Below, piece by piece: positions 1-59,031 of a DNA stretch of 64,000 nucleotides. The stretch comes from Nemertoderma westbladi. Taxonomy: Eukaryota > Animalia > Xenacoelomorpha. The number at the start of each line of letters is the position of its first letter. The first letter of the stretch is position 1. The notes below the pieces were generated by a model. The model saw only the letters and a program-made list of their open reading frames with translations, searched no databases and had not been told where the DNA came from. The stretch covers positions 15,282 to 79,281 of the forward strand of contig JAUCBJ010008395.1 of assembly GCA_032718475.1 (NCBI GenBank), in the 5' to 3' direction. The translations under genes and the position numbers were made by a program.

Positions 1-3000
1 CTGGGCGATTGAGTTGTTGCGTCTCAAAGATTATGCCTGGCTTCTTGAAGTTACGCCGCATGACGATGAGTTCTACCGAGCGTACTAAACCATCATCTGA
101 GATGTGGGTCTCGATGATACGACCTGTCTGCCACCGTTTACGTGGGAGGTCTGGATCTACAATAAGCACCATATCTCCGGCGCTGACGTTTTCTTACTGC
201 GCAAACCACTTAGTTCGAAGCTGTAGCGTGGGCAGATAATGTTTCTCGAAATGGTCAGCGAAACGACGGGATAGCAGCTGCATAAGTTGCCAAGTTCGAC
301 GGCAGTATTCGTCTCCGTCGGCAATCTCCGATCGTGGGAGCATGGCTACAGGTTTCTTCAGTAGGAAGTGCGCGGGTGTTAGCGCTTCCAGGGAATCGGG
401 ACTCGATGAGACTGGCATAAGCGGTCTCTCGTTGAGATAGGCAGCTATTTCCTCCATTAATGTCCGCAAAAGTTCGTCGGTGAGATACGCGCGGCATGGC
501 ACTATAAAGTGAAATGCCGTCTTGACACTTCTAATTAATCTCTCCCAACTTCCTCCCCACCAAGGGGCGTCGGCGGCGTTGAAGGTCCAGCTAGACGCTG
601 TTATCCTTAGCTGGTCGTCCACCTGTCTTTGGTTCCAGTCCTTCACGTAAGCCTGTATTTCGTTGTTGGCACCAATGAAGTTCGTTCCCTTATCCGATCT
701 CATGGTATTACTCGTCCCGAAGCGAGCGATCTGTCGTCGTAAACTTAAGACGAAGCTGTTGGTAGATAGATCGTTCACCATATCGAGATGGATGGCTCTA
801 CAAGTCATGCACACGAAGATGACACACCATCTCTTGACTATAGTCCTCGCACGATATACTTCAATAGGGCCAAATAAATCTACACCAGTATTAGTAAAAG
901 GTGGTTCATAGAAGCTTACTCGTTCCCTAGGTAATTCTGCCTCTCGCTGTGTTAAAGGCCTACTGAATGCTTTCCTACAGGGTATGCAGTTCCTAAGAAC
1001 TTGGTTCAGAGCTCTACGGGGTTTATCAAAATAATAGCGAGTTCGAATTTCGCTAAGAATTCGTTCTCTACCAGCATGATAAAGTTTACTGTGAACATCT
1101 ACAATCATCTTGATTTGTACTTCAAGATTTCTAATAAGTATGGGGAATTTGGTGTCAAAGGATAAGGGCGCGTTGGTGAGTCTTCCTCCAACACGTATTA
1201 ACCCATCTATCATTGTGCTCGAGAATCGATCCCTTAAGCGCATCTGCGGGTTTCTCAACAACAGGAAATACTTATCGGAATCCTCAAAGCATTGCAGGAG
1301 TCTCAGTATCTGCTTATTTGTTACTTCATGCTCCTGGTGACTAATTTTCTCCTTTAGAAAACGGTCAGATGTCTTATATTTGGGTAAATTTTTAATAACA
1401 TGAACTTGTGCAGATGTCAATGGAGCGTTATCACTAGTGGTCTTCGTCCTGGAGTAGTGATGATGAAAACATCGTCTTAAATATGTGACGGCTTTACAGA
1501 GCCGATTCCAGGAACTGTAATGATGCATTGCTCTCTGCAGCATGGGTGAGATTCCTTGCGAGACGTCTGGTATTCCAGATTTCCAATCTCTATCTCTAAT
1601 TTCCACAACAGACTTATTTGTGTTGAGGGATTGTGGATCCGAAGCATCATTCCCGGAAGTATGTAATACAGATAGATCGATAGTCGGTTTAAATAACTTC
1701 GATTTACTCGCCCGGGTTTTAGGTTTGACTGTCTCCGCTCCCTTGGCTTGTCTAATCTCTGCCGTAGTAAGGTGAGGAGGCCATTCATCCTCTTCCTTGC
1801 TCAGGAAGTCGGGTCCACCCAACCAATCTGGAGTATCTATCAGTTCCTGTGGAGTTGCTCCCCTGGAGGCGATATCGGCTGGATTAATCATACCAGGGCA
1901 ATGTCTCCATTGATCTATCTTTGTGCGACTAAGAATAATAGCTACTCGGTTAGTAACAAAAACGCTGAACTGACAGACTTCGTTGGTTAGATACTCCAAC
2001 ACGAGTAAAGCGTCGGTCCAATAAACCGTTTTCTCCAGTGGGTAGTCGATTTGTTCCGTTACGTTCCGGCCGATGGCTGTAGCGTATAAAGCCGCCTTTA
2101 ACTCCGCTCGAGGAACCTTTAACTTGTTGTTAATCAACGCCTTAGAGGTAACCAAGGCGACTTTGATTCCATCCGGGGTTTCGACTCGCAGATATGCTAC
2201 TATACCTATTCCCATGTCGCTGGCGTCTCCAAACACGTGGAGTTGATAGGAATACGTAGGAAGAACATGGCCAAAATATGCACGGGAAATTATAAAGTTC
2301 TCGATGGCAGGTAGAGAATCTTCCCATTTCATCCATTTCTTTAACAATTCTCCCTTAAGCGGATCATCCCATGAGTGGTTTTCAAGCCACATTTGTTGCA
2401 CTAAACTCCGAGCAATCAATATAACTGGGCTAATAAATCCCAATGGGTCGAAATAAGTGCTCAGGATGCTTAAACAAATCCGTTTGGTCCGAACTGGATT
2501 ATCTCGCTGTTTTAACTGAAAAAACAGGATGTCTCTTTCAGTGTCCCACTTCAAGCCTAGTGTCTTGGTTTCAGGAAGATCGTCCTTTATTAAGTCTAGG
2601 TCTTTCGTTCCTCGGTCTTCTACCGGTATGGCTTCCAGAAACTCACGGGAGTTGCTAGTGAATTTCGTCAGTCGAAATCCACCTCTTTTCAAACACTCCA
2701 CCGTTCCTTTCGCGACAGCTATGGCTTCTTCTACTGATGGAAGGGACCTTAAATTGTCGTCCATGTATATATTCCGTTTGATGTTGTCAATCACCTCTTT
2801 TGAGAAGGAGTCTCGGTTGTCATTCGCAGTGGTTCGCACCACGGAGCAGGCGTTGGAAGGGCTTGATATGATTCCAAAGGCCTGGATGGTCATCCAGTAT
2901 TCTACCGGTTTCTGATTGAGGTCTCCTTCAGGCCACCACAGAAATCTCAGGCTGTCTCTATCTCTATCCAGCGCCTTGACTTGTAAGAACATTCCTTCGA

Positions 3001-6000
3001 TATCGGAGGCGAACGCGATGGAATATTGTCTTAATCTTAAAAGTATTCCCAACAAAGATTGGAGTAAGTTGGGTCCTGGTAACAACTCGGAATTGAGGGA
3101 TTGGCCCATATATAGGGCGGAGCTATCGAATACGACTCGTACTTCGTGTGGTTTACCGGGTTTGGGAACGTAATGATGTGTTAAGTAATACGTTCTCTCA
3201 GTCACTGGTGTTCCTTCCGGTACTCGCTCCGCGTATCCCTTTGTTATAAATTTCTTCAGCTGAGTTTGGTACATTTCTTTCGCTGAAGCATTAGCTGTAA
3301 GGCGTCGATATAATTGAGCGATTCTTTTCTCTGCCAAGGGTCTGTTATTTATAAATCTAGGTTCTCGTTTTCGAAATGGTAGGCCGATTTCATACCTACC
3401 TTGGTCCTTTAAAAAACGTGTAGTTGTTTCCTGGATTTGCTTGGCTCTTTCTTCTTCTATCGATAGAGCCTTATCATATGAATTGGGCTCTACCAGTTCC
3501 TGAGTAAAGAATCGTACGGCTAGTTCGTCCCGAGTTCTAGCGTTGCAGCGCTCTATCTCATTGTTTAGTTCGTCATTGTAAGCGATGGGTTCCGATGGGC
3601 GAATCAGTTGACATAGGTTCACCTGATTTTTCCAAGTTTGGTTTTCTGTAAGTAGGTCGATGGTGTTCTCTTGATCGAAGAGTTGGTAGATGTCGTCATT
3701 ATCTGAAGAGTATGGTGTTTCCTCAGTTAGTTCATCCACCTCACTGCTCTCCTCGCTCCAATCACTCACCTGGTATACTCGTTCTTGTGGCCTTCTCTCT
3801 TCGAGAGTCCTGCGGGAAGGGCCAGTAAAGTACCAACCTACTCTAGTTCTTACCGCATAGGTTTGCAGTGGCTGCGGTTGAGCAGGCCGTTTCTCTAATG
3901 TTTCGAGCGCCTCGTGCGCGTTTTGGCCGATGAGTATTTGCACTCCAGGATAATCTGTCTGGAATCGAGGTATCTTAAGATGTTGGATGCTCTCATCTTC
4001 GTCCCAATTATAAAGGTCTGCTTGAGTAGTAGCGAAGTTCTTTATAGCCACAATTTTTACTGACCTTATACCTTGTGCTCCTAACTTATCCTGGGGGGTG
4101 GACAACACACCTACATAGTAATCTGCCGTTAGGGTAGATTTCCAAACCTGCATAATTCCTGACATATTCAATTTAGTCCGGAATTTGGGTTGTCCAGCAA
4201 AGATATCTTCGGCTAATTCTTGATCGATGAATGTTCCTGTGCTGCCGGAGTCAAGGAGTGCGTTCACTATGTAACTGTGGTTAGGACCGTGAACTCTTAC
4301 CTGCACTACAGGAAATTCTCTGATTCCTACGTTGGAAGTTGGAGCTTTCCAAGATGGTTGTTTGGCAAAAGTAGTTGGGGGAAACTCATTGTTGGTGTCC
4401 TTTTCATAAGTAAGTGCTCGATACACTGCGGTATTGATTAGATAACAGGATTCGTTGGCGTCGGAGAATTCGTCAGTATAGAATCCTTCCATCTCAGACT
4501 CCTGATCAGTGTCATTTACATCACTGAATTGGACATGTAGTTCGGGCTCACTTACCTGACTCTGTTTGTCTCGTTCGAACTCACTGTGTAACAAGATGTG
4601 ATGTTTCGCGCCACACTTTGCACACTTTATGTCGGAGTAACAGGTTCGCCATTGGTGTCCTGGTCTGAGGCAATTATAGCATAACCGCTTGTCCCACACA
4701 ACTGCACGTCTGTCTACAAGGGATTTCTTTAGAAATTCAGCACACGCACTCAAACGGTGGGTCCCGTCGCACAGCGCACAGTTAGGTTTTATGTTACTCA
4801 CTTTACCTTGGGTAACTTGATGCACTCTCGTTTTTTCTTCGGGTTTTCTTCGGTGCATTCTGTTAGGAGACTGAGGGGGGGTCTTGGCGACCTGTTCTCT
4901 CCTATCGTTGTTTCGAGCCTTGTATTTACTTACATCTTTTGATGTTTTGTCAACGTAGTAAGATCTCTCAGTGTCTTTCCCGCTATCCTCTTCTTGAGAA
5001 GCTTGGCTTTCGCCGTCGTCAGTGTAACACACCGGTGTTACTCTTCTCCTAGAAGCGGGTTTCTTACTTACCTTATTTTCCGATGTTTTCTCTCTGGACT
5101 GCTTGATGAGTTGTAGTTTTACCTCACCATCTAAGAAGGACATGAGATCAGCCATGGTAGGACTTCGTCGTTGTTGTTCATTCATGTACAACACTTTCTT
5201 GTCCCAACGTGTACATACTCCACCCTTGGGTAAAGTAGAGACTACTGCTCCAATAACCATGGAACTCTGATATTCATGAGACTTACCTAACCAGTCCAAT
5301 TGTCTACAGATTTCCTGAATTTCATCGGAAAACTCTATAATCCCGCTACTAAGGAAGTGTCGGGGGGCTACTAATTTTGCATACAAATACTTAGCTATGT
5401 TATCCTTGTTACCATACCTGATGTTTAATGTATCCCAAACTTGTCTCAATCCATCTGGATGTCCAATAAACTTTAACGCCATTAACCTGGGAGGTCCTTC
5501 CAAGCACTTGATGAGGAACCTAAGTTTCTCTCCGTTAGATTAGATAGTACAGAGTTTTGTATGCTATCTTTGTAATATTTGTTGAAAGGTAACCATTTCA
5601 TCTCATCTCCATTGAATTTGACGATCTCTCCCACTTTGACCGCTTGGCGGGCTTCTGTTCTAGCCATCTGACGCGTAAAGCTTTCTTGGGCCATCGTGTT
5701 ATTTAATATCGAATTATCGGTATATAAATTTCTCGGATCATTGTCAGGTCTATAAGGGATATCATTGATAACAGGTCTATAATCACCCTTAATAGGGTTT
5801 GCTATAGGAGTTTCTACTTCACTAGCAGTATAGATGCGGGTAGGCTCCACACCTTGCGCATGTACTACTTCAGACCTAACAGGTTGACACAATTTTACAG
5901 GGGGTATTGGTATTCCCTTTTGGATATTGACTAATTTGTCGCGTTCTAGCGCGATACTTTGCTGCACTTCTTGCAATTCGGCCCTACCTTCCCTTACTGT

Positions 6001-7995
6001 TCCCTTAAGTTGGTAGACAGTCTCCTGCATCTGTCCGAGCAGGAGATTCATCCCCCACCGTCCCTCCTCTACCCACTCGACCGCCGAAGCGGGAGTCGCC
6101 AACATTGTAGCGGGCTGACGTGGGGCGACGGGAGACAAATCTTTGATTTCTCTCTCAGCTTCCAGGACAGGGATATTCTCATGGACTGTTCTACCGGGCA
6201 CAGGCAGTGTAGTACTGTGTAAAGGGAATTTAGAGTTAAGCTCTGGAAGTACAGGGGTCTCTAACACAGGAGTGACTTTGGGAACGACAGGCCTAATTAT
6301 TTCAGGCTCATCAACTATAGTAGGGAGTCTTTTGACCTTAATAATTTGGTCTGTAGGTTCTATACTACTCAAGTCTGTGCTAGCTAATTGTCTTCTAACA
6401 GCTGGGGGCAAATCAGGCAATTTGTGACGGTAAGATGTTTTTCTACGCCTGCTTAGACGAGATCTATTTCCTCCGCCTTCAGGATCGGTGGTTTCGCTTT
6501 CCTCCGATGACGTATATCCTTGGCGTTTGGGAGTAGATTTTCTCATCATCTGCATGTGACTAGCAGTTAACTGTTTATTTATGTTGTCTTGCGTCTCTTG
6601 CAGATTTTCCAACTCCAGTTGGGTAGTCTCCTCAGAGGCTCTCCGTTCTGCTTCTGCCACTGCCTTTGCTGCTGCCACAGTCGCCTTTCTTTCTGCTTCA
6701 GCTTCTGCCGCCGCTGCCTTTCTTTCTGCTTCTGCTTCTGCTTCTGCCGCCGCTGTTACTGCAGCTGCCTTTCTTTCTGCTTCCACTTCGGCCATTGCCG
6801 CTGTTACTGCAGCTGCCTTTCGGTCCTCTATCCTTTTTTTCTTTACTAGTTCTTCTTGGACTCTAGTGAGGCGGAGTTTTTCATCAAACTCAGCTTGGTT
6901 AGCAGCTAACATTTCAGCATCGATTGAGTCTAACACACGCTGGGTTCCTTCACTATTAGGGGAAAGTCCAGACAGCCGTCTCCTCAACTCTTCGTCTCCT
7001 AGGAATCGCTGATAGTCGGACAGATATATGTCGATGGCGTCTCTCTTTCGTGGTCTCTCTGCGGTCTCTTCGCCTTCCACTTGAAAAAGGGTGGCATCGG
7101 TTGGTTCTTCATAGGTTAGTCTCTCAGACAGCTGGGATTTCCACTGGTCCGTTTCTTGTACTTTGAGACCTACCCGCTGGAACCAAGTTTTGACAGCAAC
7201 CTGCAGCGACGTGTCCTGTCTTCTTTTGGAAGTTTCCTCAAAAGCTGATAGGATTAGTCGAATGCGTAGGGTTCTTTCGCGTACTTGATATAGCAGTTCT
7301 TCCTGCTCTTGAGGTCCTTGGGGTTGTCGAAACAGTTGTTCTTCTAATCGCTCTAAGGAGCCGAAGAATCCCTGCACATATCCTGCTGCCGACCTCTTCC
7401 AAACAGCTGGATCCATAGTATCTTTAGCCACTCCCATTCTGTGTATATCTTCCCAAGTAGCCTCGGACAGATCTAACGGGAGTCCGGGTCCGGGAAAGTT
7501 CCATTGTGACTCGACAATAGACATCAATTCTTCCCTGGCGTATCCCGCATAATTATCTTGGGTCGCTCGCTTATTTCTCGCCCAGTCGGCTTGATGTTCC
7601 TCCACCGCAATCAATATAGTAGTTAGCACTGCGGCAGGAAGGGTGAGAAGGGGGTCCGAGTAGGCTTTAGCCGTCATCTGTAATCCGCGTTCGGGGGTCA
7701 GCTCGACAGTATCCGAACTACTGGAGCTATCGGATCGCTGGGAACAAGTTTCTTGACTAGGCTGTTGCTGCTGTGGGACAGCTGCTTCCTGGTTCCGTTT
7801 GACTTGGGCCCGAGTGCCGATGATAGACCTACGGTGTTGGATTAGCTTAGGGTCCGATACCACTACTGGAGGGATGACTTTTCTTTCAGTAGGAGGTGAG
7901 CTGAACTCCTTTCTTAATCGCTCCACACTCCTATCTGTGTCACAGATGGTTGTATCGATTAGACTGTCTGACAGGTTTTGCTGAGTGTCAGACAT
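1..7995 (-). pseudogene. BEL/Pao gag-pol of element A, broken by a frameshift near 5535-5544 and a nonsense codon at 194-196
   Basis: ORFs 5482-7995 and 194-5503 join (VLSNGEKLRFLIKCLEGPP) if one copy of the duplicated TTAGA is removed. After TAA at 194-196 the frame continues as ENVSAGDMVLIVDPDLPRKRWQTGRI...DGLVRSVEL, the typical BEL C-terminal domain. Confidence 0.92.
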
Positions 7996-9319
7996 GTTTA
8001 GCTATACAGTTGAATGCTTACTGCTATAGTTACAGTTAAAGCAAGTCTAGTAATTCAGTATGACCGTTGGCCTAGTACCGGTAATTTATCGCAGTATATT
8101 AGAATACCGGTATACACTTATAGTATATATAAGTATTGTAAACTAGGTTTGTCACAGAGTACCGGTATATAATTTTAGCACAAATATATAAATATATAAT
8201 AGGCCTATCGTGAATACCGGTATACAGCTTACACTGATAGTATATATAAGTATAATTATGGACTAGAATTAATTACAGAGTACCGGTATGATTTCAGCTC
8301 AAATTTATAGAAATAAATATAATAAGCCTATGGTAAATACCGGTATGTCAATTATTTTAGAATAATTGAATTTCTGAATATTTTAGGGTTACTTGGTTAC
8401 TTTAACTTACTTTGTTACCGTTATTTAAGCAGTAGTCCAACTGATATTGAGACCTAGTTGTTGTATGGCAGGCCTACTATTTATAAATCGTTTAAGTTGA
8501 TTTATAATAGATATATACCCGTTTAAAATGGGTTTTGTCAATATTTGAAATAAATGTTATTATTTCTGGGGTCACTACACAGAAGCTATGCGCTCTCAGT
8601 GGAGTGCTACTTATGGGACACTAAAACTGATAATTCTAATTTACCTAAGTTACTTAATACTACAAATTACTTACGATACGGGTGAGATTAATTCTCTAAT
8701 TAAACACAACAAAAATATTACGTACGAAATTTTAGGGTAATTTTACAGGAAGTCTACAAACCAGCCTAACAAAGGGTTAGAATTCTGGTTATTACAACGG
8801 ACAGGGTACTACGGTATTTGAAATAATAAGTAGTAGTAAATATATTGCACTGTCCAGATAGGAAAATACCACCGCCTGACGACCTATAACTGTATCGCTA
8901 TAGGTACTACGTTATGTATCACGGAGTGTTCCTACCTAGAAGTTAATTACCGCGGACTACCAGATCCAGCGTGCCTATTAACCACTTTACAACACAAATA
9001 TACTGCCTACACACTAATTACTTTCGGAAAGCACTGTACACTAAACCCTAAATTAGGTACAAGCACTGGTACAACAAATAATCAGTAGTTAAATATACTT
9101 GAACAGTTAAAAGAACCACGGCATCTGCTGGAGTGACCAGAGCACAAAGTCACCAGTCTTGTCCTACGCCAAGCAGCCCGTGTAGTACCGGGGTTAATTT
9201 AACTATAACGGTATGTGTAACAAACACAATTACTGTAGGAATAAACTTGGGGACATGAATGTTGCGAATAATCGCATAAACTCTGAATAATAAATATTAC
9301 GCTACCCGTACAGAATACT

Positions 9320-9800
9320 CAAACAAAATACAAACCAAACGCTGGCAGACTACTACCAGGCCTAAATAAACTACTGTATGTGCAGATTCCAAAACGGTTA
9401 GTTAGTATGCGTTCTAACACGGTAGTACGACTTATTCTTTAAGAGGGGATTGACCTTACAGCTATGGCTACCCCAACTTACTAACTGGCACTTTATCAGA
9501 CAAACTCTACACAAGCAGCAATCTCTTCAGACCTAATAATAGCTAGACAACAATCCAGCCTACAAAATATCTGAGTAATAACTATTACGGTACCTGAACA
9601 GACCACACAAACAAACACAGGCCAAAACGCTGGCAGAATACTGTCAAGCCTAAATAAACTACAGTATGTGCAGATTCCAAAATTGTTAGTTAGTATGCGT
9701 TCTAACATGGTAGTACGACTTATTCTTTAAGAGGGGATTGACCTTACAGCTATGGCTGCCCCAACTTACTAACTGGCACTCTATCGGACAAACTCTACAC
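9320..9800. repeat. Direct duplication (~180 bp, ~290-bp spacing) in the leader of element A
   Basis: CCTAAATAAACTAC...GGGGATTGACCTTACAGCTATGGCT...CTAACTGGCACT occurs at about 9360-9495 and 9648-9785. Confidence 0.8.
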
Positions 9801-10034
9801 ACGCCGCAATCTCTCCAAACTCAACAACAATCCGACAACAGTCCGGCCTACAGTTATCTGAACAATCTGAGCAGACTTACACGTCTTCAGCTCAATATTA
9901 ACTTACTAGGAAATAAAACTGACAGAAATAGACCTAAGTAAAATCTCAATAAAAACCAGGCGTCCCCGATTTAATATCGAGACCTACCGTTATACAATAA
10001 TCAAAATCGAATAATACTAATGTACTTATACTGG

Positions 10035-10160
10035 AAGTACCGGTTAGGACAGTTGGGCCTACGGACCTACAGAAGTACCGGTTCTGACAGTTGGACCTAC
10101 GGACCTACAGCAGTACCGGTTCTGGCAGTTGGGCCTACTGACCTACAGAAGTACCGGTTC
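10035..10160. repeat. ~37-bp tandem repeat (3-4 copies) in the leader of element A
   Basis: GTACCGGTTCTGACAGTTGGACCTACGGACCTACAG-like unit repeated. Confidence 0.75.
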
Positions 10161-10214
10161 AGGTTTACCGGTTGACCGGTACTTTCAACTTTATTGCTTA
10201 CTGCAATAAAGTCA

Positions 10215-10225
10215 ATAACTGTTAT
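10215..10225 (-). promoter_or_regulatory. Non-tRNA primer-binding site of element A (ATAACAGTTAT), complementary to LTR-internal 11012-11002
   Basis: It abuts the terminal CA of the LTR, has no TGG, and is a perfect 11-nt complement of a site inside the LTR. Confidence 0.65.
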
Positions 10226-11510
10226 TGTACGCGCTTTTGAAGACCTTTAGCAGTTTAACCTGCCAAAATTTATATGTCTTTTGGTTTATAAATAGACTTT
10301 AGAAGATGACAAATATTTAATACCAATAAACACAACATTAGCAGAAGCCAGCCTAGTGCGCGTCCATTCACCCGCTGGATATACCCGGGAGACTGGATTC
10401 TGAGGGCTTAGATTATTATTGCAGTGTAAGCTTACTGTATTGTATTATTCGATTGATCGTTAATAAATTTCTGACTAATATTATTTACTTTCGGGAAAAT
10501 ATTAACAGTTCCTTTAGGACGTGGCGCTCTATCTAGGTAAACAGAGATATGACTTATACTAATCACAACGGCAAGTCGGTAAGGCTTATGATTCACGTAT
10601 GAGGCGCATTCTTTAGGAAATGCTTAGTTATCAGTCACAATCATGCACACTACCGGTAACACACAATACTGCTCACTAATTTGCCGACCGTCAATGAATT
10701 TTATCATATATAAAGAAAACAGCAACGGATTCATGTAGTGCTTATCAAATAGCATTAAATTCACTACAAACCACAATAATATAAGTCGCAATCGCTATAT
10801 ATAACCCGTCTCTCTAACCTGTAGTGTATCAAGAAAATTGGGAAATTTGGGTTCTTTATATATGTTCTCCAAATAATATTCAACCAAACAATAGTAAATA
10901 GCAGTATAATAATGTATATTGAACCGATAATGTAAAACTGAATTGCGATCAGTTGTTATGATAAGATAAGTTGATTGTTATGCACTGATTGTTATGTTAT
11001 GATAACAGTTATACGCTCTATAATTTAAGCCTACTAATGTTTCTTCTAAAGTATGAAAACGAATTGACTCTAGAGCCGGTGTTCCTGGCCTAGATAGAAA
11101 CAACACAACAGTATCACAAAAACAGTAAGACTGAACACTCCTAGTATCATCGGCCGAATATCTACACGTCGACAGAAAAAATCGCTCTGATTGGCTCAAA
11201 CCAAACAAAGAACCGTGCGTCCAATGGCTGTTTCCATGCCAGCAACCAGCTGCTAGATGTCGCAATCTGAATCATCAAGGCCAAGCCGTGTAAAGGTATT
11301 TGGTGCATTGAGGGTTTTTTGCCTTACCATGTCCGCCAAAACACGTATATAGAAGAATGACTTTTATGTCCGTTAAAACACCTATAACGGTACCTTGCGG
11401 GCGAGGGGAATATATATATAGTTAGAGAGCCTTTTAGAGTATTCCAGCGCCTGGGGGGAAACTGGATTGGGAAGCAAAAGGGCCAGTTATATCCCACAGA
11501 AGCTTTTACA
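10226..11510 (-). repeat. 5' LTR of element A
   Basis: On the minus strand it reads TGTAAAAGC...CGCGTACA. It is a near-identical inverted match to 14224-15482. Confidence 0.9.
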
Positions 11511-12696
11511 ATATTGCTCTTCTACCTTATATTAAATAATACATATAGTAGCGTGATGTCCCTCTAACAGTAGCGTAAAACGCAAATAAATCTGTTAAAC
11601 CTTTTGACCATCTGTAATTCTAGTCGATTAAGATATCGTGGCACACACCGATATACTTGAAAGACAAATTATAGAATCAGTGGTTAATGTCCCCAGACAG
11701 GTTCTGGAATAAATCGGTGCCCATCTTAAATATTAATTTAATATTTAGTAAAATCTGTAAAATTCAGATCCGTTAACAATTCTAGTCGATTAAGATATCG
11801 TAGCACTTACCGATACTCTTAAAAGGACAAAATTCCTAGAATCAAGGATCCAAGTCCCCAGACACGTTCTGGAATAAAATTGTGTCTATTTAATATTAAA
11901 TAATAAAATTCACGGGAATAAATTTAAATTCATATTTTTAAATGAATTTCATAAATTGTCATTTTGTACAATTTATAACATTCCCAAAATTCCATTAATT
12001 AATAGATCATGGGAGCGGAGATTCATCCTATTGAGTGTATTAGAGTGCGAGAATCTCCAACATATAGTCAATAGCCAATAAAATTAATAAAATCATGTAT
12101 AAAGAGGATATTGACAATTAAAGAATTATTATTAAATAGCATTCCAGATCTGTATGCATGAGAATTACCCTAATTCTACAGCTAGCATTCCATAATGTCA
12201 CCATAGCAACACCCACGCTAGAATTAGAAGCAAGTTAAGAGAACAATAGAAAGCTTGTCCCATTGCATAGCATAGAGAATACATAACACACTGTTAGTAT
12301 CCAAGGATACACAGTAATAACGTGACATTCTGGAATGCACTGACTAACGGACAAATGGCCTGTATGTGTACAATTGGTGACAGTTGTGTGGAATTTGTGC
12401 GTTTGTAGGTGAATGTTACTGCTAAGGTGTGTTTACAGTAGCTAGTCGCAATTGTGAAAGTAGCCCAACTCTCCTATAGAAAGAACCTAAAGTGGATTCA
12501 AGCCTTTGTGACGGACAGTGGAGTGACTTGTGCCGGTTATCGTTGTCGTGCTGTTGCTACATGTTGGCGTAAACACCGCGACGACGGTACATCGGCGCTG
12601 AGAATCCCACTGTCTGGGGGCAAAGAGAGGTAGGCAGCGACGTCCGCTCGCCTAAACATAAACTCATTTCGATATTAACAAACTCAGATAGCAGAT

Positions 12697-14145
12697 ATGA
12701 CGGAGTTGATAGAAGATGATCTTGGTATCAGGGAGCGATATACTCTACCTTTACAAGCATTTGTGGATAGCTTGATACGCGGTGAAACCGATCCAACCAT
12801 TACGGAGGACGATGGTCGTTATATCGAACCGCCGATGTCCCAAGAGCAACTTACGCGTGAATTGGACTATCGAAAATTCACCGCTCGCTATACGCATCGT
12901 AATGGTACGTATATGGACTTCCTAACTACCGGCCATCCTATCGATTTACATGATACGGACGATGTAGACACCGAAAGGGAAATGGTTCTATTTAAATATC
13001 ATACCCAGCGGAGTCGTAACGATAAACCGAGAATAGATCACGAAAATTATATTCGTAACAGACTGGGAAGACGAACCAATATGCCTAGAATCTGAGGAGA
13101 TTCAGCCTATCGCGCCCGGAACAGCGACAACGATTACATCCTAGAATGGTATCAAGGTCCACAGTGTCTCACTGCGTACGATTATCGCCATGCCAACTAT
13201 GTTTCTCGGCAACGTTGTCGGTTATGCGCATCGAGAGACCATGTTACGCCCATGGACACAAACGTCCGCTGTTCCTATTTCCACGAACGACCGGCGATGG
13301 AAATTTATTGCGCGTATTGCAGACTCAATAACTTGCATATTTTTGCGGTTTGCCCTCAATTTATGACTCAATGTCACCGTTGTCGGCTAAAGGGACACGC
13401 CAGTTTCGATTGCCCTTTTAATCACGATTTAGAAAGCGTAGATGAAATGATCACACTACGTTACATCAGAGCTTGGGAAGCGAACGCTGATTTACATTGT
13501 GATTCGCGCCATCGCTATTATCCCGGACGCGCTTACGAAGGAGTTTATGCGTTCCATCCTTATCTATTCGCTTCGGTTGAACAGAAATCACGCATATCGA
13601 GTTACGAACTACTGAAGCGCGTCGGAGAATGTATCTCAACCAAGTTCGTACGCAAATTTCTCAGGAGTGTTAATCCTAGCGACCTTCATTCCTATAACTT
13701 AATCAATTATATCCGTCAGGATCCGGACTATGGAGACTTGTTTGTTAACTCACACCCCGAGTTACAGGAAGTATATCGACGGCCTTACGAATACCGAGCC
13801 CGCGAACGCGAGTTGGAAAGAACCATTAAACCCCGGAGGTTTCTAACTGCCTATGGTCCACCCACGGCCCTCGTTCAGACCACTCGTAAAGGACCCGTAA
13901 GAGCGGCTGTCTGGAAACGAGCTCTCAAAGCCGTTAGACCCCTCTCCCCTGACGTTGATGTCAATCAACCCGGTACTTCGACTGGCGGATACACCGACCA
14001 TAATCCTACACCCTCTGATGCAATCATATTGCACCCTTCACCCAGGAGTTATAGCCCTCCTTGTAAAGTGGCTCGCCCCAAGGAGAAAAGGACTCTGGCT
14101 AGCTTTAAGAAACTGCATAAACGCCGTCCGCGCAAGAAAGACTAA
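12697..14145 (+). CDS. Extra ORF with three zinc knuckles and a basic C-terminus (482 codons, one internal TGA at 13093-13095)
   Basis: The 132-aa and 297-aa ORFs are in the same frame and 13096-13251 is open. Motifs are CRLCASRDH-x9-C, CAYCRLNNLHIFAVC and CHRCRLKGHASFDC (CX2CX4HX4C); the protein ends KKLHKRRPRKKD. Confidence 0.7.
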
Positions 14146-14223
14146 CTGTTTAGAGTATTTACGTATATTAGAAACTGTGATTTTGTATATTTTATAGACT
14201 CAAATCCCATTTTCTGGGAGCGG

Positions 14224-15482
14224 TGTAAAAGCTTCTGTGGGATATAACTGGCCCTTTTGCTTCGCAATCCAGTTTCCCCCCTAGGCGCTGGAATACTCTA
14301 AAAGGCTCTATAACTATATATATATTCCCCTCGCCCGCAAGGTACCGTTATAGGTGTTTTAACGGACATAAAAGTCATTCTGCTATATACGTGTTTTGGC
14401 GGACATGGTAAGGCAAAAAACCTGCAATGCACCAAATACCTTTCACAGCTTAGCCGTGATGATTCATATTACGACATCTAACAGCTGGTTGCTGACATGG
14501 AAACAGCCATTGGCCACATGGTTCTTTGTTTAGCTTAAGCCAATCAGAGCGATTTTTTCTGTCGACGTGTAGATATTCGGTCAATCATACTAGGAGTGTT
14601 CAGTCTTACTGTTTTTTGTGATACTGTTGTGTTGTTGCTATCTAGGCCAGGAACACCGGCTCTAGAGTCAACTCGTTCATACTTTAGAAGAAACATTAGT
14701 AGGCTTAAATTATAGAGCGTATAACTGTTATCAGTGCAGTCCGACTCAATCGGCACATACATTGTCATATCATATCTTAACCTACCGTCTTAATGCTTTT
14801 TACTGTTGTCATATTTTGTATTAGTTGGTTGAATATTATTTGGAGAACATTTATAAAGAACCCAAATTTCCCAATTTTCTTGATACACTACAGGTTAGAG
14901 AGACGGGTTATATATAGCGATTGCGACTTATATTATTGTGTATGTAGTGAATTTAATGCTATTTGATAAGCACTACATTGGTCCGTTGCTGTTCTCTCTA
15001 TATATGATAAAATTCATTGACGGTCGGCAAATTAGTGAGCAGTATTGTGTGTTACCGGTAGTGTGCATGATTGTGACTGATAACTAAGCATTTCCTAAAG
15101 AATGCGCCTCATACGTGAATCATAAGCCTTACCGACTTACCGTTGTGATTAGTATAAGTCATATCTCTGTTTACTTAGATAGAGCGCCACGTCCTAAAGG
15201 AACTGTTAATATTTCCAGAAAGTGAATAATATTAGTCAGAAATTATTTATTAACGATCAATCGAATAATACAGTAAGCTTACACTGCAATAATAATCTAA
15301 GCCCTCAGAATCCAGCCCCCCGGGTATATCCAGCGGGTGAATGGACGCGCACTAGGCTGGCTTCTGCTAATGTTGTGTTTATTGGTATTAAATATTTGTC
15401 AACTTCTAAAGTATATTTATAAACCAAAAGACATATAAATTTTGGCAGGTTAAACTGCTAAAGGTCTTCAAAAGCGCGTACA
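14224..15482 (+). repeat. 3' LTR of copy A'
   Basis: TGTAAAAG...CGCGTACA, preceded by the PPT; CCAAT box near 14540. Confidence 0.88.
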
Positions 15483-16012: not shown

Positions 16013-16970
16013 TGTTAAACTGGGATGGTAATAATGGGCCTCGCCCTGATTACTTTGTTTATTATCTGATAATAATTGACTGCCAATCTCTGTAGATAGT
16101 AGCTCCCACATTTCCTACTTTCTATTGGTACAGTACAAGGTGCTAATAGTTATGATCAGCTGTTCTGGCCCTACCATTGAATGCCTTGTAACGATAGTTA
16201 AGGAATTATTGCGGTCAGGTGGTACCTCAGCTTTCATGTAATAGTGTTGCTTTCATGTAGTCAGGTTGTACCTCTACATTGATAATACCGTACTAAACAT
16301 ATTTGAACTTATTTATATTTAGATATATTTCATATTTATATTCAGTCAGTGGCTACCTAGTACTCGCTGTGCTGTACGAGGCGACCCAGTCTTGCCTGGT
16401 GCTTTTCCTCAACCGAGCAGTTTACCGTCCGCGTGAGTTATCCGGTCGCGGTCACGGTCGGTGCGTCTGGATGGTTGGTGGCCCCCCTTGGCCCCAACGG
16501 CAACCACCGATAGCTCAACAAACTCTATTTCATTCGGCCTTGCCTATTCGCCTGACATAACGGCATAGGGAGCCATACTTTCCTTTAACGTGTTATCTTT
16601 CACGATACAGATAACCCACCTATTGGGTTTCTGGGATCATTATATTATGATATAAAGTACACCCTCAATCGTACTGATTGTCGGGCCTGTTTGTGTTGGT
16701 TATTATTGTGAACGGTGCTACACAGCGGAGGCCAGTTAAACAAACAAAGTGAGTTTCAAACCACATTAATAGGTTTACCCTGCTTGGTGTCTTGTAGCTC
16801 TACCGTAAAGCCATAAGCTGCCCCCTTATGACCCTTTTGTGTAAGATAGTTTAAAATAAGTGTGCGAATGTCCCCTATCCACCCCGGAATTCGACCTGTC
16901 AGTCACGTCGTACCGAGAAAGTCGGGTGTCAGGTTCTTTATTAACTGTCTAACAGTCACCGACTTTGACA
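16013..16970 (+). repeat. 5' LTR of element B
   Basis: TGTTAAAC...TTTGACA, direct repeat of 26215-27172. Confidence 0.97.
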
Positions 16971-16982
16971 TTAAAGGAAAGT
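16971..16982 (+). promoter_or_regulatory. Non-tRNA primer-binding site of element B (TTAAAGGAAAGT), complementary to LTR-internal 16577-16588
   Basis: It abuts the terminal CA of the LTR and is the perfect 12-nt reverse complement of ACTTTCCTTTAA inside the LTR. There is no TGG-type PBS. Confidence 0.7.
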
Positions 16983-17595
16983 TAGATTTTTCAATTAATA
17001 CCAGTTACCTGTAATTGATATTAATTGGAGAAAGTGCGATCCTCATTCGCCACCTTTCTGTGTGGTCTGATTTTACTTACAGTACCTTTAAAGTGAGATA
17101 TATATTAAAAAAAAATATATAAGGGTTAATTTTTTACTGTTGCTGGTAATATCTAAGTTTATATATATACTGTACTGTTGTATATATGGTGTGTTTACAT
17201 AGAGTAGATATACCGGTAGTATACATAATTAAATTGACTTGGGATTCCAATGATATTTGACTGTGGAATGTCTGCATACTGGCAACCTTAATAAAATTAC
17301 ACACCTTTGATTAAATTGATAATTGGTTTAATTTCGTAAATTTAAATATATTGAAATTGGCCTAAAACGAATAGTTTTGTTTCCGCAGCGATTTGTTGCA
17401 GATATTGTTTACTATTTCGACTTACTACTAACCGCTAACCGCTGTATAGTTTCTCATTTAAATTTAGGCTATAATGTAAAAGGTTGACCTGAAAAAATTG
17501 GTTATTAAAAAGATAAAGGCTAATTTATTTTATTTTACAGGCCTACATAATCAATTATTAATTTATATAAATAACAATTCCCACAAGTATTAAAT

Positions 17596-20500
17596 ATGAG
17601 TGATTATAGTAAAACTAGTCAAAGGTCAACCCAAAGTCAGCAAGTCCTAAGTCCACAGCGAACCAAACCAAAGGTTATACAGGATAAAGTACAAGGTGGC
17701 CTTGGGGCACCTCCCACAAGGAACGCAGCTCATGTTGGGGCTGCGGCCGTAGCCAATCAAAACTTACCTGAGATTTTGGTTAGCCTAGCTGCACTTGGTC
17801 TCGACGCTGCCTCTCTGGAAACAGAGGGTTGGCGCAGGGCACTTGGTGGGGTCATTGGCTACCGCAACCGCCGAGTCAATGAAATTATTGCCTTGCAAAG
17901 GGCATGGACTGATGAGACTCCTATTGATCTCCTACGGGGTTATGGCATCGAGATGGAGGAGATATTATCAAAAAGACGGCATCTCAGTGAAACCTTGCTT
18001 CGGTATGCTAAACTTACAAACCGTGAGCCCATATGCTTATATGTACAAAAGGCAGATGCCGAATTTACTGTCATAATCAATAAATTTTTTAATGCTATGC
18101 CGGGAGGTCTATACCCACTTAAAGCAGCCAAGTCTTTGGGAGAGGTGGTGCCACCAGTAGTGGATGAAATCACTGGTAAAGTTGCTGATATGACAATTTG
18201 CTCACCAACCAATATATCAGTTGTACCTTATGTTACACCAGTAAGTCGTTCTGTTGATGTAGCTACTGAATTAGCAGCTGATAACACACTCTGTCCAAAC
18301 GACAGTGTTTCCCAAATACCCGTAGGTTCTCACTGCAGCAACTCCAGTTCTACCGTTCGAGCCTATCTGGAGGCTGAGCAGAAAAGGGATGAAGCACACA
18401 GGGAGAGAGTTAGGCGCCATGCTGTAATGGAGCAGGAGGAAGCTCTCCTCAAAGCCGAGGCTGTTAGGCAACGCGCTATTAAAGAGCAAGAAGAACAAAT
18501 CTCTCGCGTTGATACTGCTATAATCAAAGCACAGGCCAAGCGGCGTGCCCAAGAAAAAATGGATGAAGCTGAAATGGAGATTGAGCAGCGTAAATCTCGT
18601 AGAATCATTGAGTATGGTTCAGGTGGAAGTGCGGGATCAGGTCTTTCACGGGGAACATTTCCGCTCCGAACCCCAGATCGACATCCACATGTAACATCTA
18701 CACTCACTTCAACACAAATCCCAGCGACTATGCCAGTGACATATAATAATTTGTCGCCACCTTTAGTGTCGGCTGTTAAGGCAGCCAATCCATCCATAAC
18801 ACCATTAAATCCAAAGGCAGTGCCTTTCCTGCCATTAAAACCATTACCAACTGGTCAATATCGGGTTCGAGAACCAAACCCAAACCATAGGCGAAGTATG
18901 CCTTCCTCTGCTGCCATACCCATTCATCAAGATCCTGAAGCAGAGCGACAACCATTTGCCTCAGGTACTCGACCACCAATTGCGAGTAATCTTCCACAGG
19001 TAACCAAGAAATTTCCAGCTCAGGACATTCGGTATCTACCAGGAACTGCTTTAGGGTCAAATCCACATCGAGAATTCATGAACACTGACAATGGTCCTCC
19101 CATCCCACGATCACAAAATCCAGTGTGGTATCCACATAATGCAAGAATGTCTGGGCCACCATATGGCTCGCAGCGACATCAATATCCAGAGGTATCCCGA
19201 TATAATGATGTTGATCCAATGGGATATCCAGAAATAGGGACTCAAAATCAAAATACCCAAAATATTGGACAATCACAATCTGGGCTTAACACTAGTCTAG
19301 AACAAGCCAGTATGCGAATTTTGTCGCATACAGAAATCAATCGATTTCTACCATACACTAAATTTGTCACCTTCAAAGGTGACCCAGAACAATGGCCAGC
19401 CTTCTTACAGTACTTTACCACAACTGTTCTTAGTAAAGGCTTGTCCTCTCAGGAAAATCTTAGCTTTTTGCTATCTGCAACTGCTGGGCCGCCCCACCTT
19501 GCAGTCACCCAACATATTGGAATCCCTGGGGGTTTTGAGAAGGCCTGGGCAAAACTTAAAAAACGCTATGGCAATCCGCGATGGCTTGCCAAAGAGTTAT
19601 ATCGCCAAGTTATTGAGTATCCTGCTCTTAAAGGCCAGCAGGATATTACTCCATTTTTTGATACATTGGAGCGTATTGTAGCGCAATTAACAGCAATTGA
19701 TCAAATAAATGAATTGGATAACGCCCCAATTATAAGTACTATGGTCCAGAAACTAACTGGAGCATGTCAAGGTCGGTGGTTTAAGAATGTGAAACGTCTT
19801 GTATACCCCGAATCTGATCGTATTATGCCTCGTTCTGAGAATCTAAATGATTTTATGAAGTTTCTTGAATGGGAAGTTGATTTGGCTGAGTGCAGTGGTG
19901 CCCCAACAGCTGCTGCTATAGATAAGGCAGCACGGAATCAACCTAGAACCGAATTACGGCCTTCTTATCGATGGCATCCAAAAAAGGCAGTTGAAGCAGC
20001 CTTTGCAGCCTCAGCAGCTGTAACTCCAGAAATTTATAATAAGTCAGCCGATGAGGAATCAGAAGAAACAACCTGTGCAGTAACAGACCGCAAATTGCCT
20101 TTACCAAGTAAATCAAAATCCTCTAAACCAAAACTGTCATGTGAAAAACCCAAGTCAGTACCACCCGAATGCATCCGATGTAAAAATGGTAATCACCATA
20201 TCTACCGCTGCGAAACATTTCACAAAGATGATGTTAAACAGCGCCGAGACTTTATATCAAAGTCTCGACTTTGTTATAATTGTCTTCGTTCAGGTCACAC
20301 CACCACAGAGTGCCCTTCAGCACGAAATTGCAGAGCATGTGATAATCGCCATCATACCTTGATATGTCGAGACCCTAATGCTTCAACTGCTGTAGCTGTA
20401 CTTACTGCAGAGTTGATTACTGGATCAGATTCATCCTTTGTTGAAGATAGTCCAGGAGAGGTAGAAGCAGAGGCTGAGGCCTATATAGTTGAAATGGTAG

Positions 20501-23500
20501 ACTCTCCATCCATTGCTAAATCTTTCTTTATAGGAAAACGCAGTGTTAAAGAATATCCTATTCTTCCAGTTCGTGTCATGGGTCATGGCATTGAGCATCA
20601 CTGCTTTGCTTTGCTAGATACTGGCAGTACTGCAACATTTTTAGATGAGTCTGTCTTTGACAAGATCTTCCCAGAATCAACTAGTCTTAGATTGACATTG
20701 CAAGGTATTTCAGGGGAAGAAGTCATGGGTACAAGAAAGGCATTTGGCTCCATTAGTTCTCTGGAGGGAAGCTGTACTGCTCGCCTCCCTCGTGTGCGAA
20801 TGGTTCGCCTGAAGTTTGGTCAAGCTTGTGGTCAAGCATATGATTGGGCTTCAGACCCTTTTCCTGCAGAAGTTGGCTTGAAAGCACCAACTCTGCCTGA
20901 TCCATCAGTTGTAATGATCATTGGTGGTAATTGCTCAGAAATGCGTATTATATTAGAACAGCGCCCATCTAATCCTACTGCATATGGATGTCTAGCTACC
21001 CGAAGTCTACTGGGTTGGTACTTTACAGGCCCCTCTCGACGAACTTGTATAGAACGCCAATGGCCAGTTGATGACATTGAATCAACAATGGCTGCTGATC
21101 GTGGTGATGCCTCTGCTGCACTATGGGCACAGGAGGTTCCCCCCGGTGAGACCTCTGAGCTGCTTCTTCTTCAAGAAGAAGTATACCAAGAAGATGATGA
21201 TACTGATGTACTATCTGAAACTTCCTTTACCAACCTCATGGAAGAGTCTCTAAACATAATAAATACTGGTCTAGATCTTCTCTGTGATGAAGATAAATAT
21301 GTACTTCAAGCTTTGGATCATAGAGTTTCTGCCTGGATTGATGGTCTGAAATTGCAGCCCCATGATTTAGAGAAAGCTAGCTCTGTAGAAGAGCTCCGTG
21401 CCGCTGAAATACAAAGGACTACACGACGTCTTCTCCCAGATGGCCATTATGAAATAGGCCTTCTCTGGCGAAAGCCTGAACCACGCCTCATTAATAATCG
21501 TCCACTTGCCTTAAGACGTCTAAATTCCCTTAAGAAACGTCTAATTGACAACCCTGAAGTAAATGTAATGTACCGCGCTGAAATGGACAAACTCTTAGCC
21601 AACGGATGGGCTATGCGTATTCCAGATCACTTAATAGCACCAACTCCTCGAACTTATTACTTGCCTCATCATTTCGTTATAAATCCTAATAAGCCAGGTA
21701 AAGTTCGTGTTGTAAATGATTGTGCTGCTGTATATCGTGGAATTTCTTTAAACAGTGAGATAATGAAAGGACCAAACTACCTTAGAAATATTGTAGGAAT
21801 TCTTCTTCGATTTCGAATCTCAGCTATTGCTTACATTGCAGACATTGAAGCTATGTTCATGCAGGTCAGAGTTACTCCGGTAGACAGAGATTCCCTGAGG
21901 TATTTATGGTGGGAATCTGAAGACATGTCAGGGGATCCCATAGAATATCAAATGTGTTCTCAAGCATTTGGTATAATATCTTCTCCATCAAATGCTGGTA
22001 GCAGTGTTGTTGGTTGCGTTGCAGATAACCAAGACCTCACCGACTCACTGGGAGAGCCGTTTTACTCACCTGATGCTGCAAGTACATTACTTCGCGACAT
22101 TTATATGGATGATATAATGAGTGCACAGCCAACAGTTGAACAGGCTATTATTGTTGCCCACCAGGTTCGTGACACTCTTGCACTAGGTGGTTTCAATCTT
22201 TTGAAGTTTGCAAGTAATAGTTCTAAGTTCTTAAAGTCTTTCAGTCCTGAGCTTCGCCAGGATGCTACTGTAGAACTTGGTATTGACCCACTTCCTGTAA
22301 CGAAAGCTCTAGGCATTCTTTGGGATCCTACAAAAGACAACCTGTTCTTTAAGGTTAAGTCCTTTACCGATGGACCTCGGACAAAGAAGTCTTGCCTCTC
22401 TATACTAGCAACGACATTTGATCCTCTAGGATTGATTGCACCAGTCATTATGGCTGGGAAAATTCTTTTAAAGGATATCTGGGCTCATGGCTTAGATTGG
22501 GATGATCCTCTTCCTGGTCACCTCTTAGCACAATGGTATAAATGGGAAACAGCCTTACACTATTTAGACACTATGCTCCTGCCACGTCAGTATTTGCCTG
22601 ATCTTCAGCCTACCTCATCTGTGGCATTCCATATCTTCAGTGATGCAAGCAGTTTAGGCATGGGAGCGGTTGCATATCTTTGTTGGGATGATGAACAGAA
22701 TATTGGTACTGCATTGTTAGGCAGCAAAACTCATATCATGCCTACGAAAGGACTAACCATACCCAGAGCAGAATTGCAAGCTGCAGTATATGCCGTTGAA
22801 TTAGCTAGAACTCTACATAAAGAACTCATATGGCCTGAGGCCAAAATTACATTCTGGACAGATGCTTCTTTAGTTCTGCAGTACTTACATAACGAGACTA
22901 CTCAGTTTGTAGTTTATGTTGCAAACCGAGTTCAAGCTATTCTCTCATTCACCACTGTGGCTCAGTGGAGACATGTACCAGGTGATCAAAACCATGCCGA
23001 TTCCGCATCGCGTGGTTTAATTTGTGACAAATTCTTAGACTGTAAACTTTGGTTCGATGGGCCAGAATTCTTACAACAAGGACCAGAGTACTGGCCTCCT
23101 CCCCTATCTGACACTACACTCGGGAAGGGAGCGGAACTCAAGGTGAAGCCTCTGATATTGGCTGTTCCAGACTTCGATTCTGCATTACAAATTAAGGTTT
23201 CAAGCCTTAGTAATCTGCTGCGGATTGTAGTACCTTCAACTGGTAATGAAACCTTTCCTGATACTACAAAAAATGTTAGTCCCCTATTACTTGATCTTAT
23301 ACAGCATTATCGATCCTTTAATAGAGCTGCAAGGGCTATTACATGGATTAAACGTTTTATTCATTGGTATTTTGGTGGAAAACCAAAGTTAACACCCAAT
23401 AAATTACCAAATATGGTTCCTCTGAAAGAACCAAATGCTGAAGACAATTCCATCCTTGAAGATACAAACAAGTGTAAAAAGCACAGAGTTTCAGAAGTGC

Positions 23501-56400: not shown

Positions 56401-56900
56401 AGTGTAAATAATCGCCAGGTTGTCGACCGGAATTTCTAACTTTCTGTACCCGTTTTTTGGGATCGAGACGTAATCTGCTGTCTTTACAGCACTCTGTCCA
56501 ACCTCCCTCTAGCGGGAAGGTTGGCAGGCAATCTTAGGATCGAAACGTAGCTAACTGGCCACTCAGCAGTCTCCTTGGCTACCCAATCAGGACGCTTCCT
56601 GAGACGGTATTTAAGGAGCTGCTGGCCACTTTTCCTCACTTCCAAGTCGACAACCTTTTCCTTGTGCAAACCCCTGCTTCAAAGTTTAGTGATTTAATTG
56701 TCTCCTCTTCTATTTCCTTATTATTCAACGAACTATTATAAATAAACTCAGTTATCGCGTTCACTCAAAATCAACTTTTTCAACCTTCACCTTACCCTTC
56801 TACCTCTACTTTGGGAGCCGTCACATAGTTGCACTCCCTTCGGCAACTGGGATTCTAAAATCGAAGACTCTCTGCATCTCTCAACGCCCAGTTCGCCACA
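50444..56900 (+). mobile_element. BEL/Pao LTR retrotransposon C
   Basis: It has 498-bp LTRs (50444-50941 and 56403-56900), TSD AAGCC, PPT AGGAGGGGAG, and a truncated tRNA-Tyr-like PBS CTTCGAACCGGAT at 50942-50954. Confidence 0.96.
50977..56136 (+). pseudogene. BEL/Pao gag-pol of element C with one nonsense codon (TGA 55558-55560) in integrase
   Basis: LLDTGS, YVDD, YADAS, GLDYAG, SDNATTF. HAP*HGGFWERMVG corresponds to the conserved APWxGGFWER, and the downstream ORF 55582-56136 is in the same frame. Confidence 0.92.
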
Positions 56901-57459: not shown

Positions 57460-59031
57460 TGTTCGCGCTTTTAGACCTTTAATAGTTTAACCTGCTAATT
57501 TATGTGTCTTATGATGTCTGACAGCCCGTACAAAATATGACCACAGCAGAAGCCAGTCTAGCGCGGCGTATGACCCACCGGATGTGGGAGACTGGATTCT
57601 ATGACAGAGAGAGGTGTAGGCTACTTTGTATTATTCGATTGATCCTTACTATATAATCTCCAAAAATTATGTTTATTTTCAGGGAAATACCAACAGTTCC
57701 TTTAGGTGCTGCGCTTTAAATACCATGCCAAATTGCCAAGTTATGACTTATACTAATTACAACGGATGGGCATGAGATAACGCAATTGTTTACATTCTTT
57801 AGGAATGTATTATTAATCGTACACACTCACGCAACTAACAATAGTACTGAAACACACCAATTTGCCGACTGTCACCAATTTTACTCATAAATAAGGAGAA
57901 ATTTAGCTCACGTACGTTGGGGACAATGAAACAACATGAACTCATACAAACCACTGTTATTTGAGCCAGGCAATTGTGACTAGTATTCCCCTCCGCTTAC
58001 CTCAATAATCAAGAAAGCCAAGAGAGTTACCGGTTATTCGTAAGTATTCTTCAAATATTAGCATTAATTAAATAGGTTACAAACCACAATATATTATAAC
58101 AGCATAAAAACAGTATAAGGGATGCGGTGTGGCAGTGTCAGCAGTCAGACGTCAGAAAGTCAGGATGTGTTGCAATACGAGAGTGTCAAGTAAGTAAGTG
58201 CCAAGTTAATAGATTTGCGTTCTATGATCTCTCTGGCCGCTGATGTTTCTGGGCAAAGTCAGAAATTCAGGATGAATGATTTCGTCACATTAGGCCCCCG
58301 TCACACGGAGCAACTTGTTTCTGAAACTTGTTGCTGGACCCCCTCACACACAGAAACTTGTTGCTGCAACTTGTTTCCGAAACTTGTTTCTGTGTGTGAG
58401 GACTCCAGCAACAAGTTTCTGCAACTTGTTTCCGCAACTTATTTCTGTGTGTGAGGGAGTCCAGCAACAAGTTGCTGGAAGTTATATACCCAGCAACTTT
58501 TTGAAAAACTTTTATTACATTCCATTTTGATACTAGCTAATATTAGATAATTTGAGTGATGTGATATTATATACAAAAATGACTGGACATGTTAGCTATT
58601 TATTTGGAAATAATTGTTATTTTCTTCAGCAACAAGTTTCTGTGTGTGAGGGGGTCCAGCAACAAGTTGCAGAAACAAGTTTCGGAAATAAGTTGCTGAA
58701 ACAAGTTGCAGCAACAAGTTTCTGTGTGTGAAGGGGTCCAGCAACAAGTTGCAGAAACAAGTTGCTCCGTGTGAGGGGGGCCTTACGGTATACATATGTA
58801 AACAAAGAATTCGCAAAGTGAAAATCGCGCTGATTGGCCGAAAATATTGTAGCATGGGCTCTACGGATAAAGAAACAGCTGGCAAATTTCGTCATGTTAG
58901 TTCTGGATTAAGACAGACGCGTAGTTGCATAAGTTTATAGTTTCTATAGTGCTATAAAATAATGCTGGCACCTTTAGAGTAGTTCGCGAATTGCACAAAA
59001 ACGCCACATTTTTGCCGCAAAAGCTTTAACA
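57460..59031 (-). mobile_element. Old solo LTR related to the family-A LTR, interrupted by a MITE
   Basis: Collinear blocks shared with 10226-11510 include TGTwCGCGCTTTT, GCAGAAGCCAG, GGAGACTGGATTCT, AACAGTTCCTTTAGG, TATGACTTATACTAAT, AATTTGCCGAC, AAAATCGC.CTGATTGG and terminal AAGCTTT.ACA. Flanks TTTGC / CTTGT may be a decayed TSD. Confidence 0.75.
58293..58782. mobile_element. PIF/Harbinger-type MITE with long, internally repetitive TIRs
   Basis: GGCCCCCGTCACACGGAGCAACTTG...CAAGTTGCTCCGTGTGAGGGGGGCC with TSD TTA on both sides. Confidence 0.88.

Follow-up and report, generated by a model that had tools for sequence, protein, structure and literature searches.

Evidence for likely self-priming by LTR RNA in a Bel/Pao retrotransposon of Nemertoderma westbladi

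Element A, a Bel/Pao LTR retrotransposon in the genome of Nemertoderma westbladi, probably primes its reverse transcription with 11 nt of its own LTR RNA and not with a host tRNA; judging from sequence, we give this reading a probability of about 0.78. The combination of a complementary match at the priming position, the equal length of the matches and the loss of the tRNA site points to this reading.

Self-priming has been described for Tf1/sushi elements and predicted for Tcn1 and for TAR/Houba, according to the accessible parts of the sources (PMC6317226, PMC4600332, 10.1101/2022.12.06.519325). Tf1 and Tf2 of Schizosaccharomyces pombe, Tj1 of S. japonicus, the Tf1/sushi group and Tcn1 are Ty3/gypsy elements without a tRNA site, and in the Tf1 type an 11-nt LTR stretch complements a site adjoining the 5′ LTR (accessible parts of PMC7175516, PMC4600332 and PMC6317226). 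The Tf1 primer consists of the first 11 nt of the RNA and is held in a three-stem pretzel (10.1101/2022.12.06.519325, accessible part). By comparison, the ICTV profile describes Bel/Pao elements as primed by host tRNA, through an 18-nt site that matches the 3′ end of the host's tRNA-Arg or tRNA-Gly by complementarity, and calls their replication poorly understood (PMC8742986).

Results

Three Bel/Pao elements in the window

The window, by which we mean the whole 64,000-nt stretch of animal DNA that was analysed, contains three Bel/Pao LTR retrotransposons (A, B and C), each with Pfam matches to Peptidase_A17 and DUF1759. No tRNA genes were found in the window. Its main features are the following.

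194..5539, minus strand: A ORF2, with DUF1759, Peptidase_A17, Integrase_H2C2 and a YMDD RT motif
5482..8001, minus strand: A ORF1, 839 aa from stop to stop, by position the N-terminal gag part
8002..10214, minus strand: long leader of element A (2.2 kb), with internal duplications
10215..10225, minus strand: primer-binding position of element A, 11 nt flush with the LTR, without TGG
10226..11510, minus strand: 5′ LTR of element A, 1285 nt, TG...CA ends
10871..10999, minus strand: segment differing strongly between A and A′, directly after the candidate primer (far end approximate)
11002..11012, minus strand: candidate self-primer at positions 499-509 of the A LTR, complementary to 10225-10215 without mismatch
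11190..11194, minus strand: CCAAT box of the A LTR, 182 nt upstream of the candidate primer
11511..14223, plus strand: 3′ internal part of A′ (2.7 kb), ending in the purine tract GGGAGCGG at 14216-14223
14224..15482, plus strand: 3′ LTR of A′, 91% identical to the A LTR
14721..14731, plus strand: copy of the 11-mer in the A′ LTR
16013..16970, plus strand: 5′ LTR of element B, 958 nt (3′ LTR at 26215-27172)
16577..16588, plus strand: candidate self-primer, B LTR positions 565-576
16971..16982, plus strand: primer-binding position of element B, 12 nt, without TGG
17575..24999, plus strand: gag-pol of element B, 2474 aa in a single open frame
50444..56900, plus strand: element C, Bel/Pao but distant (26% RT-RNase H identity with A), which served as the negative control
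57460..59031, minus strand: A-family LTR, old and diverged (64% identity in the 3′ half), interrupted by an inverted-repeat insertion

The gag-pol of A has the Bel/Pao content of DUF1759, Peptidase_A17 and an integrase after RT, and all listed homologues carry PF05380; its ORF2 stops short of the last integrase-side domain, and ORF1 has no Pfam match. The two frames overlap by 58 nt (5482-5539, minus strand) in different frames, where B has a single frame; the overlap is either a programmed shift or a mutation. Only the 5′ LTR of A lies inside the window and its 3′ LTR is beyond it. Of the Bel/Pao LTR features, B (16013-27172) shows TG...CA ends, purine tract and target-site duplication (GTATA), with a single base difference between its LTRs that marks it as young; for A, they were read from the 5′ LTR in the window and from the purine tract of A′. 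The internal regions of A′ and B both terminate in GGGAGCGG. A is classed as Bel/Pao by its protein, and it departs from the family description in its primer trait.

Element A was probably inserted, in reverse, into the related element A′; a contig of run X1 runs on past 11511 with a different sequence. The A′ LTR is a 3′ LTR, as the purine tract before it indicates, and so there is no A′ primer site for comparison. The 3′ internal part of A′ holds an extra sense frame at 12679-14145 (plus strand), of 138 aa and 349 aa in frame with one TGA between them; it is Cys/His-rich and has no Pfam match, and Atlas leads below 0.9 point to CCHC zinc-knuckle proteins. Elsewhere in the window, the insertion in the old LTR (58292-58783) is non-coding and MITE-like, with 99-nt inverted ends and inner repeats. 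Element C has identical LTRs and an integrase interrupted by a stop at 55558-55560. Tandem arrays at 32350-33700, 35290-36720, 37780-39290 and 39630-41240 (units of about 9-11, 54, 12 and 17 nt) lie close to frames that match PAN (28813-29520) and laminin G (31228-31986).

The primer-binding position of element A matches its own LTR

Read on the minus strand, the 5′ LTR of A extends from TGTAAAAG (11510) to GCGCGTACA (10226) and is followed without a gap by ATAACAGTTAT at 10225-10215. A single copy of its complement ATAACTGTTAT lies in this LTR, at 11012-11002 (LTR positions 499-509 out of 1285), and A′ likewise has a single copy, at 14721-14731. Complementarity between site and LTR covers exactly 11 nt and ends there. 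The original prediction had placed the 11-mer directly after the 5′ LTR, its perfect complement within the LTR and a retained copy in A′, and all of its coordinates were confirmed. It had also cautioned that the 11-mer is AT-rich and quasi-palindromic; the 11-mer and its own complement indeed differ by no more than the central base, so that from element A by itself a complement and a near-direct copy are indistinguishable. The 11-mer shares several bases with the opening of the Tf1 primer, which we take to be coincidence.

We compared the match with shuffled sequence, the check that had been proposed for it. Dinucleotide shuffles reached 11 nt at offset 0 in 12 of 5000 cases and at offsets 0-5 in 23 of 5000; shuffles of 6-nt blocks did so in 66 of 5000 (offset 0) and 125 of 5000 (offsets 0-5). 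When every internal position of A was scored, 6 of 9985 gave 11 nt, the site itself being among the six. Because of these counts, and the more so because a single base separates the 11-mer from perfect palindromy, the match in A alone is suggestive only. Among the differences listed between the run X1 contigs and the window, none falls in 10215-10225 and at least four fall in the next 25 nt, an observation to which we give no weight. When aligned to the window, these contigs leave a gap at 10856-11150, where the candidate primer lies.

Divergence between the A and A′ LTRs had been described as adjoining the 11-mer; it is sharp and begins 2 nt past it, with identities of 32/51, 18/50 and 39/50 in the bins spanning 501-650 and at least 44/50 in every other bin. 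Slippage of short repeats in A seems to explain part of this difference. The old LTR had been described as a solo LTR that keeps the CCAAT box; the box is present (58837), and the label ‘solo’ is not borne out, as a target-site duplication is absent. This LTR lacks the 11-mer at the aligned place, and it is of no use as a covariation test, since its downstream flank gives just a 7-nt complement.

Element B shares the geometry of A

The 12-nt site of B complements its own LTR at offset 0 and is not palindromic (direct match, 5 nt). Here, dinucleotide shuffles reach the match in 1 of 5000 cases at offset 0 and in 4 of 5000 at offsets 0-5, and 6-nt block shuffles in 6 of 5000 and 10 of 5000, respectively. 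As had been proposed, the geometry is that of A with other letters: 12 nt flush with the LTR, at a site that differs from A’s. The candidate primers lie 776 nt (A) and 382 nt (B) from the LTR end, and the predicted primer-site duplexes have free energies of -10.1 and -12.9 kcal/mol. In element C, the negative control, the longest self-complement is 6 nt; the site directly after its LTR (50942-50955, plus strand) has neither TGG nor a self-complement, and presumably resembles what is left of a tRNA-type site, one frequent among Bel/Pao elements, once the first bases are gone.

An RT phylogeny, also proposed at the outset, places A and B on one branch, both without a TGG site (support 100/100 in a 30-row tree); they also group in a 232-row tree (support 1.0). 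They are 47% identical over RT-RNase H, which by bit score exceeds any fetched homologue. Their LTRs have no alignable sequence in common (best E 0.15). The position of A+B among the other relatives in the 30-row tree is a fork. The signature is not confined to A and B.

Relatives carry self-matches across predicted splice junctions

Scans for related loci returned 17, with 30-43% identity, one from metagenomes and 16 from prokaryote genome bins; the prokaryote genome scan gave 0 loci with a two-sequence alignment and 16 with a 35-sequence alignment. Viral contigs, scanned twice, held no related loci. None of the 17 belongs to the A+B branch. From their gene type we infer that all 17 are animal retrotransposon contigs; L002-L017 are Bel/Pao polyproteins on sixteen contigs in prokaryote genome bins, likely contamination from host animals. 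We scored 12 of the 17, excluding L002, L013, L015 and L017 (short contigs without an LTR pair) and L012 (incomplete LTR). Offsets of up to 9 nt were allowed, and the matches begin 0-8 nt from the apparent LTR end; for L001, L004, L006, L007, L008 and L014, the LTR ends were placed manually on inspection.

A self-match of 11-12 nt across a GT-AG junction, predicted from GT/AG signals, is found in 10 of the 12 relatives (L001, L004, L006, L007, L008, L009, L010, L011, L014 and L016; the match in L014, which has a weaker donor, was read by eye). L005 has a junction self-match with one mismatch (10/11 by eye; script score 8), and L003 has a contiguous self-match in its own LTR. No scorable relative (0/12) has TGG among the 6 nt that follow its LTR. 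An all-against-all comparison of 13 elements, including A, B and C, gave self-matches of at least 11 nt in 11, the misses being C and L005, whereas 0 of 156 non-self pairings reached 11 nt and 6 reached 10 nt. Between L010 and L011, two differences at the exon end are compensated at the two matching site positions.

The spliced-type relatives carry a TATA box 100-240 nt before the donor in 5 of 9 and an AATAAA 9-37 nt past the acceptor in 7 of 9. A and B, too, stand apart from these relatives: their LTRs lack AATAAA, and their primers lie far from the LTR end (776 nt in A, 382 nt in B). We rejected a primer assembled by splicing in either A or B, as junctions with strong signals give no match; the only junction match in A is of 10 nt and uses a weak donor inside the 11-mer itself. 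A single clade for the contiguous forms A, B and L003, a group named after a tree had been seen, was likewise rejected (p-AU 0.0018), and the contiguous state is therefore not one lineage. In L001 (about 266-290 and 601-640), two adjacent stretches of 12-13 nt near the presumed RNA start were seen by eye to complement two leader stretches downstream of the primer site.

Transcription start and RNA folding

The original prediction took a CCAAT box about 180 bp upstream as fitting an RNA start near the 11-mer in A. The box is there, at 11194-11190 and 182 nt upstream, and it is kept upstream in three LTRs (in the old LTR at a distance of ~130 nt after subtracting the insertion); the start at the 11-mer is putative. 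The B LTR has its only CCAAT at LTR position 71, not near the primer, and neither A nor B has a TATA-like box ~30 nt upstream of the primer.

We calculated how the predicted primer-site pairing depends on the RNA start. In A, an RNA that begins at the 11-mer or 10 nt ahead of it gives a pairing of 0.91; the value is then 0.62, 0.54, 0.002 and 0.26 for starts 20, 33, 50 and 77 nt upstream, and 0.01 or less for starts 100 or 250 nt upstream. In B, it is 0.89-0.93 at the primer start, 0.13-0.16 at 100 nt and 0.07-0.71 at 250 nt. Folding is a weak guide in RNAs of 0.5-1 kb, since the duplex forms with a probability above 0.89 in just 2 of the 7 spliced RNAs predicted for the relatives. Flanking stems of the Tf1 ‘pretzel’ kind are not above chance (186 and 21 of 300 shuffles in A; 140 and 232 of 300 in B). 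The best flanking stem in A pairs LTR ~1079 (10432-10417) with the leader (10209-10196), coordinates being approximate, at -17.3 kcal/mol (21/300 shuffles).

Discussion

By analogy with Tf1, the LTR-derived 11 nt of element A would pair with the primer-binding site, the element’s RNase H would cut the RNA just 3′ of the paired 11 nt, and RT would extend the new 3′ end into U5. The site would be re-copied from the primer in each cycle, and primer and site could thereby stay matched while drifting. In A and B the primer is contiguous in the DNA and splicing would not be needed. We tentatively favour, at close to an even chance, a self-primer that lies within the transcript, like the apparent splice-junction primers of the relatives, over a 5′-terminal one.

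The 5′-terminal variant, which is also self-priming and of the strict Tf1 type, is the more doubtful of the two: the RNA would start at the 11-mer and its first 11 nt would be the primer. In its favour are the high predicted pairing at the primer start (0.91 in A, 0.89-0.93 in B), which is far lower for most upstream starts, the A/A′ divergence right after the 11-mer and the CCAAT box kept upstream in three LTRs. Transcription starts as a rule at a pyrimidine-purine step, and the T/A step at which both the A and B primers begin fits. Against it, a TATA-like box is absent ~30 nt upstream, CCAAT is 182 nt off in A with none nearby in B, and the pretzel stems are absent; in the relatives, moreover, a 5′-terminal primer would require a first exon of 3-7 nt.

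Two further explanations dispense with self-priming. The pairing could be a structural or regulatory RNA switch (for packaging, dimer formation or translation), with priming by a tRNA fragment, a protein or other means. Complementarity by itself is no proof of priming, and in several relatives the match lies 2-8 nt off the apparent LTR end; however, A, B and most of the relatives have it at the priming position, its length is always 11-12 nt, it takes the place of a tRNA site instead of adding to one, and a dozen different sites would require a dozen different host primers. We consider this unlikely. Chance is very improbable, even though the 11-mer is an AT-rich near-palindrome in an ATAAC-repeat-rich LTR region, readable as a direct copy with one change and absent from the old LTR, and A could simply have had its tRNA site lost or mutated: 66-125 of 5000 block shuffles and 5 further positions among 9985 do as well as the match in A. 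Yet such an accident would have to recur in the non-palindromic 12-mer of B (direct match 5 nt) and in all 12 scorable relatives, one with a mismatch, while 11-nt non-self pairings number 0 of 156.

The central idea of the original prediction, a primer site that matches the element’s own LTR and not a tRNA, is supported. Self-priming in Bel/Pao elements would likely be a variant of a mechanism already known, occurring in a family whose description has it using tRNA primers. As in Tf1, the LTR-complementary site of A is flush with the 5′ LTR and is 11 nt long (PMC7175516, accessible part); in contrast to Tf1, the primer of A lies 776 nt from the site and its flanking stems are not above chance. 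Unlike the Tf1/sushi elements, A is Bel/Pao: it lacks the Ty3/gypsy chromovirus polyprotein and has no chromodomain match. The TAR lineage (Houba, Osr-1) resembles A in having sequence-predicted self-priming within an otherwise tRNA-using superfamily, as given in the accessible part of PMC6317226, whereas it is plant Ty1/copia, of another superfamily and another host kingdom. With the Belpaoviridae (genus Semotivirus) A has in common domain content, LTRs, a purine tract and a metazoan host (PMC8742986); A, B and the 12 relatives depart from that description in having an 11-12-nt self-complementary site instead of an 18-nt tRNA site.

Two Bel/Pao surveys (PMC3118150, PMC6238403) do not mention primer, PBS or tRNA, and a third (PMC554778) does not mention PBS or tRNA. 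Bel/Pao LTRs are not modelled in the accessible part of PMC3601003, and the accessible parts of PMC8220671 and PMC6934838 hold nothing on Bel/Pao priming. Our literature search, confined largely to main texts outside the subscription journals, turned up no paper in which Bel/Pao elements self-prime; an earlier mention may exist in other journals, in supplements or in Repbase, Dfam or GyDB.

Beyond element A, we entertain, at somewhat less than an even chance, the broader reading that a wide Bel/Pao lineage of marine animals gave up priming by tRNA and relies on 11 nt from within its own RNA. If so, most members would obtain the primer when the host splices out an LTR intron, their replication would thereby be linked to splicing, and the intron-free state would have arisen or been kept at least twice, since A+B and, separately, L003 are contiguous. 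This would be a self-priming route unlike Tf1’s 5′-terminal primer, and the primer might be supplied in trans by a short RNA ending at the poly(A) signal of the 5′ LTR.

A precise test is at hand, with named primers of 11-12 nt, a prediction of where the cut falls and paired forms that either have or lack the LTR intron. Annotation that requires a tRNA site would misjudge such Bel/Pao elements as defective. If true, Bel/Pao would become the third LTR superfamily with self-priming, after the Tf1/sushi-type gypsy elements, where it is described, and TAR copia, where it is predicted.
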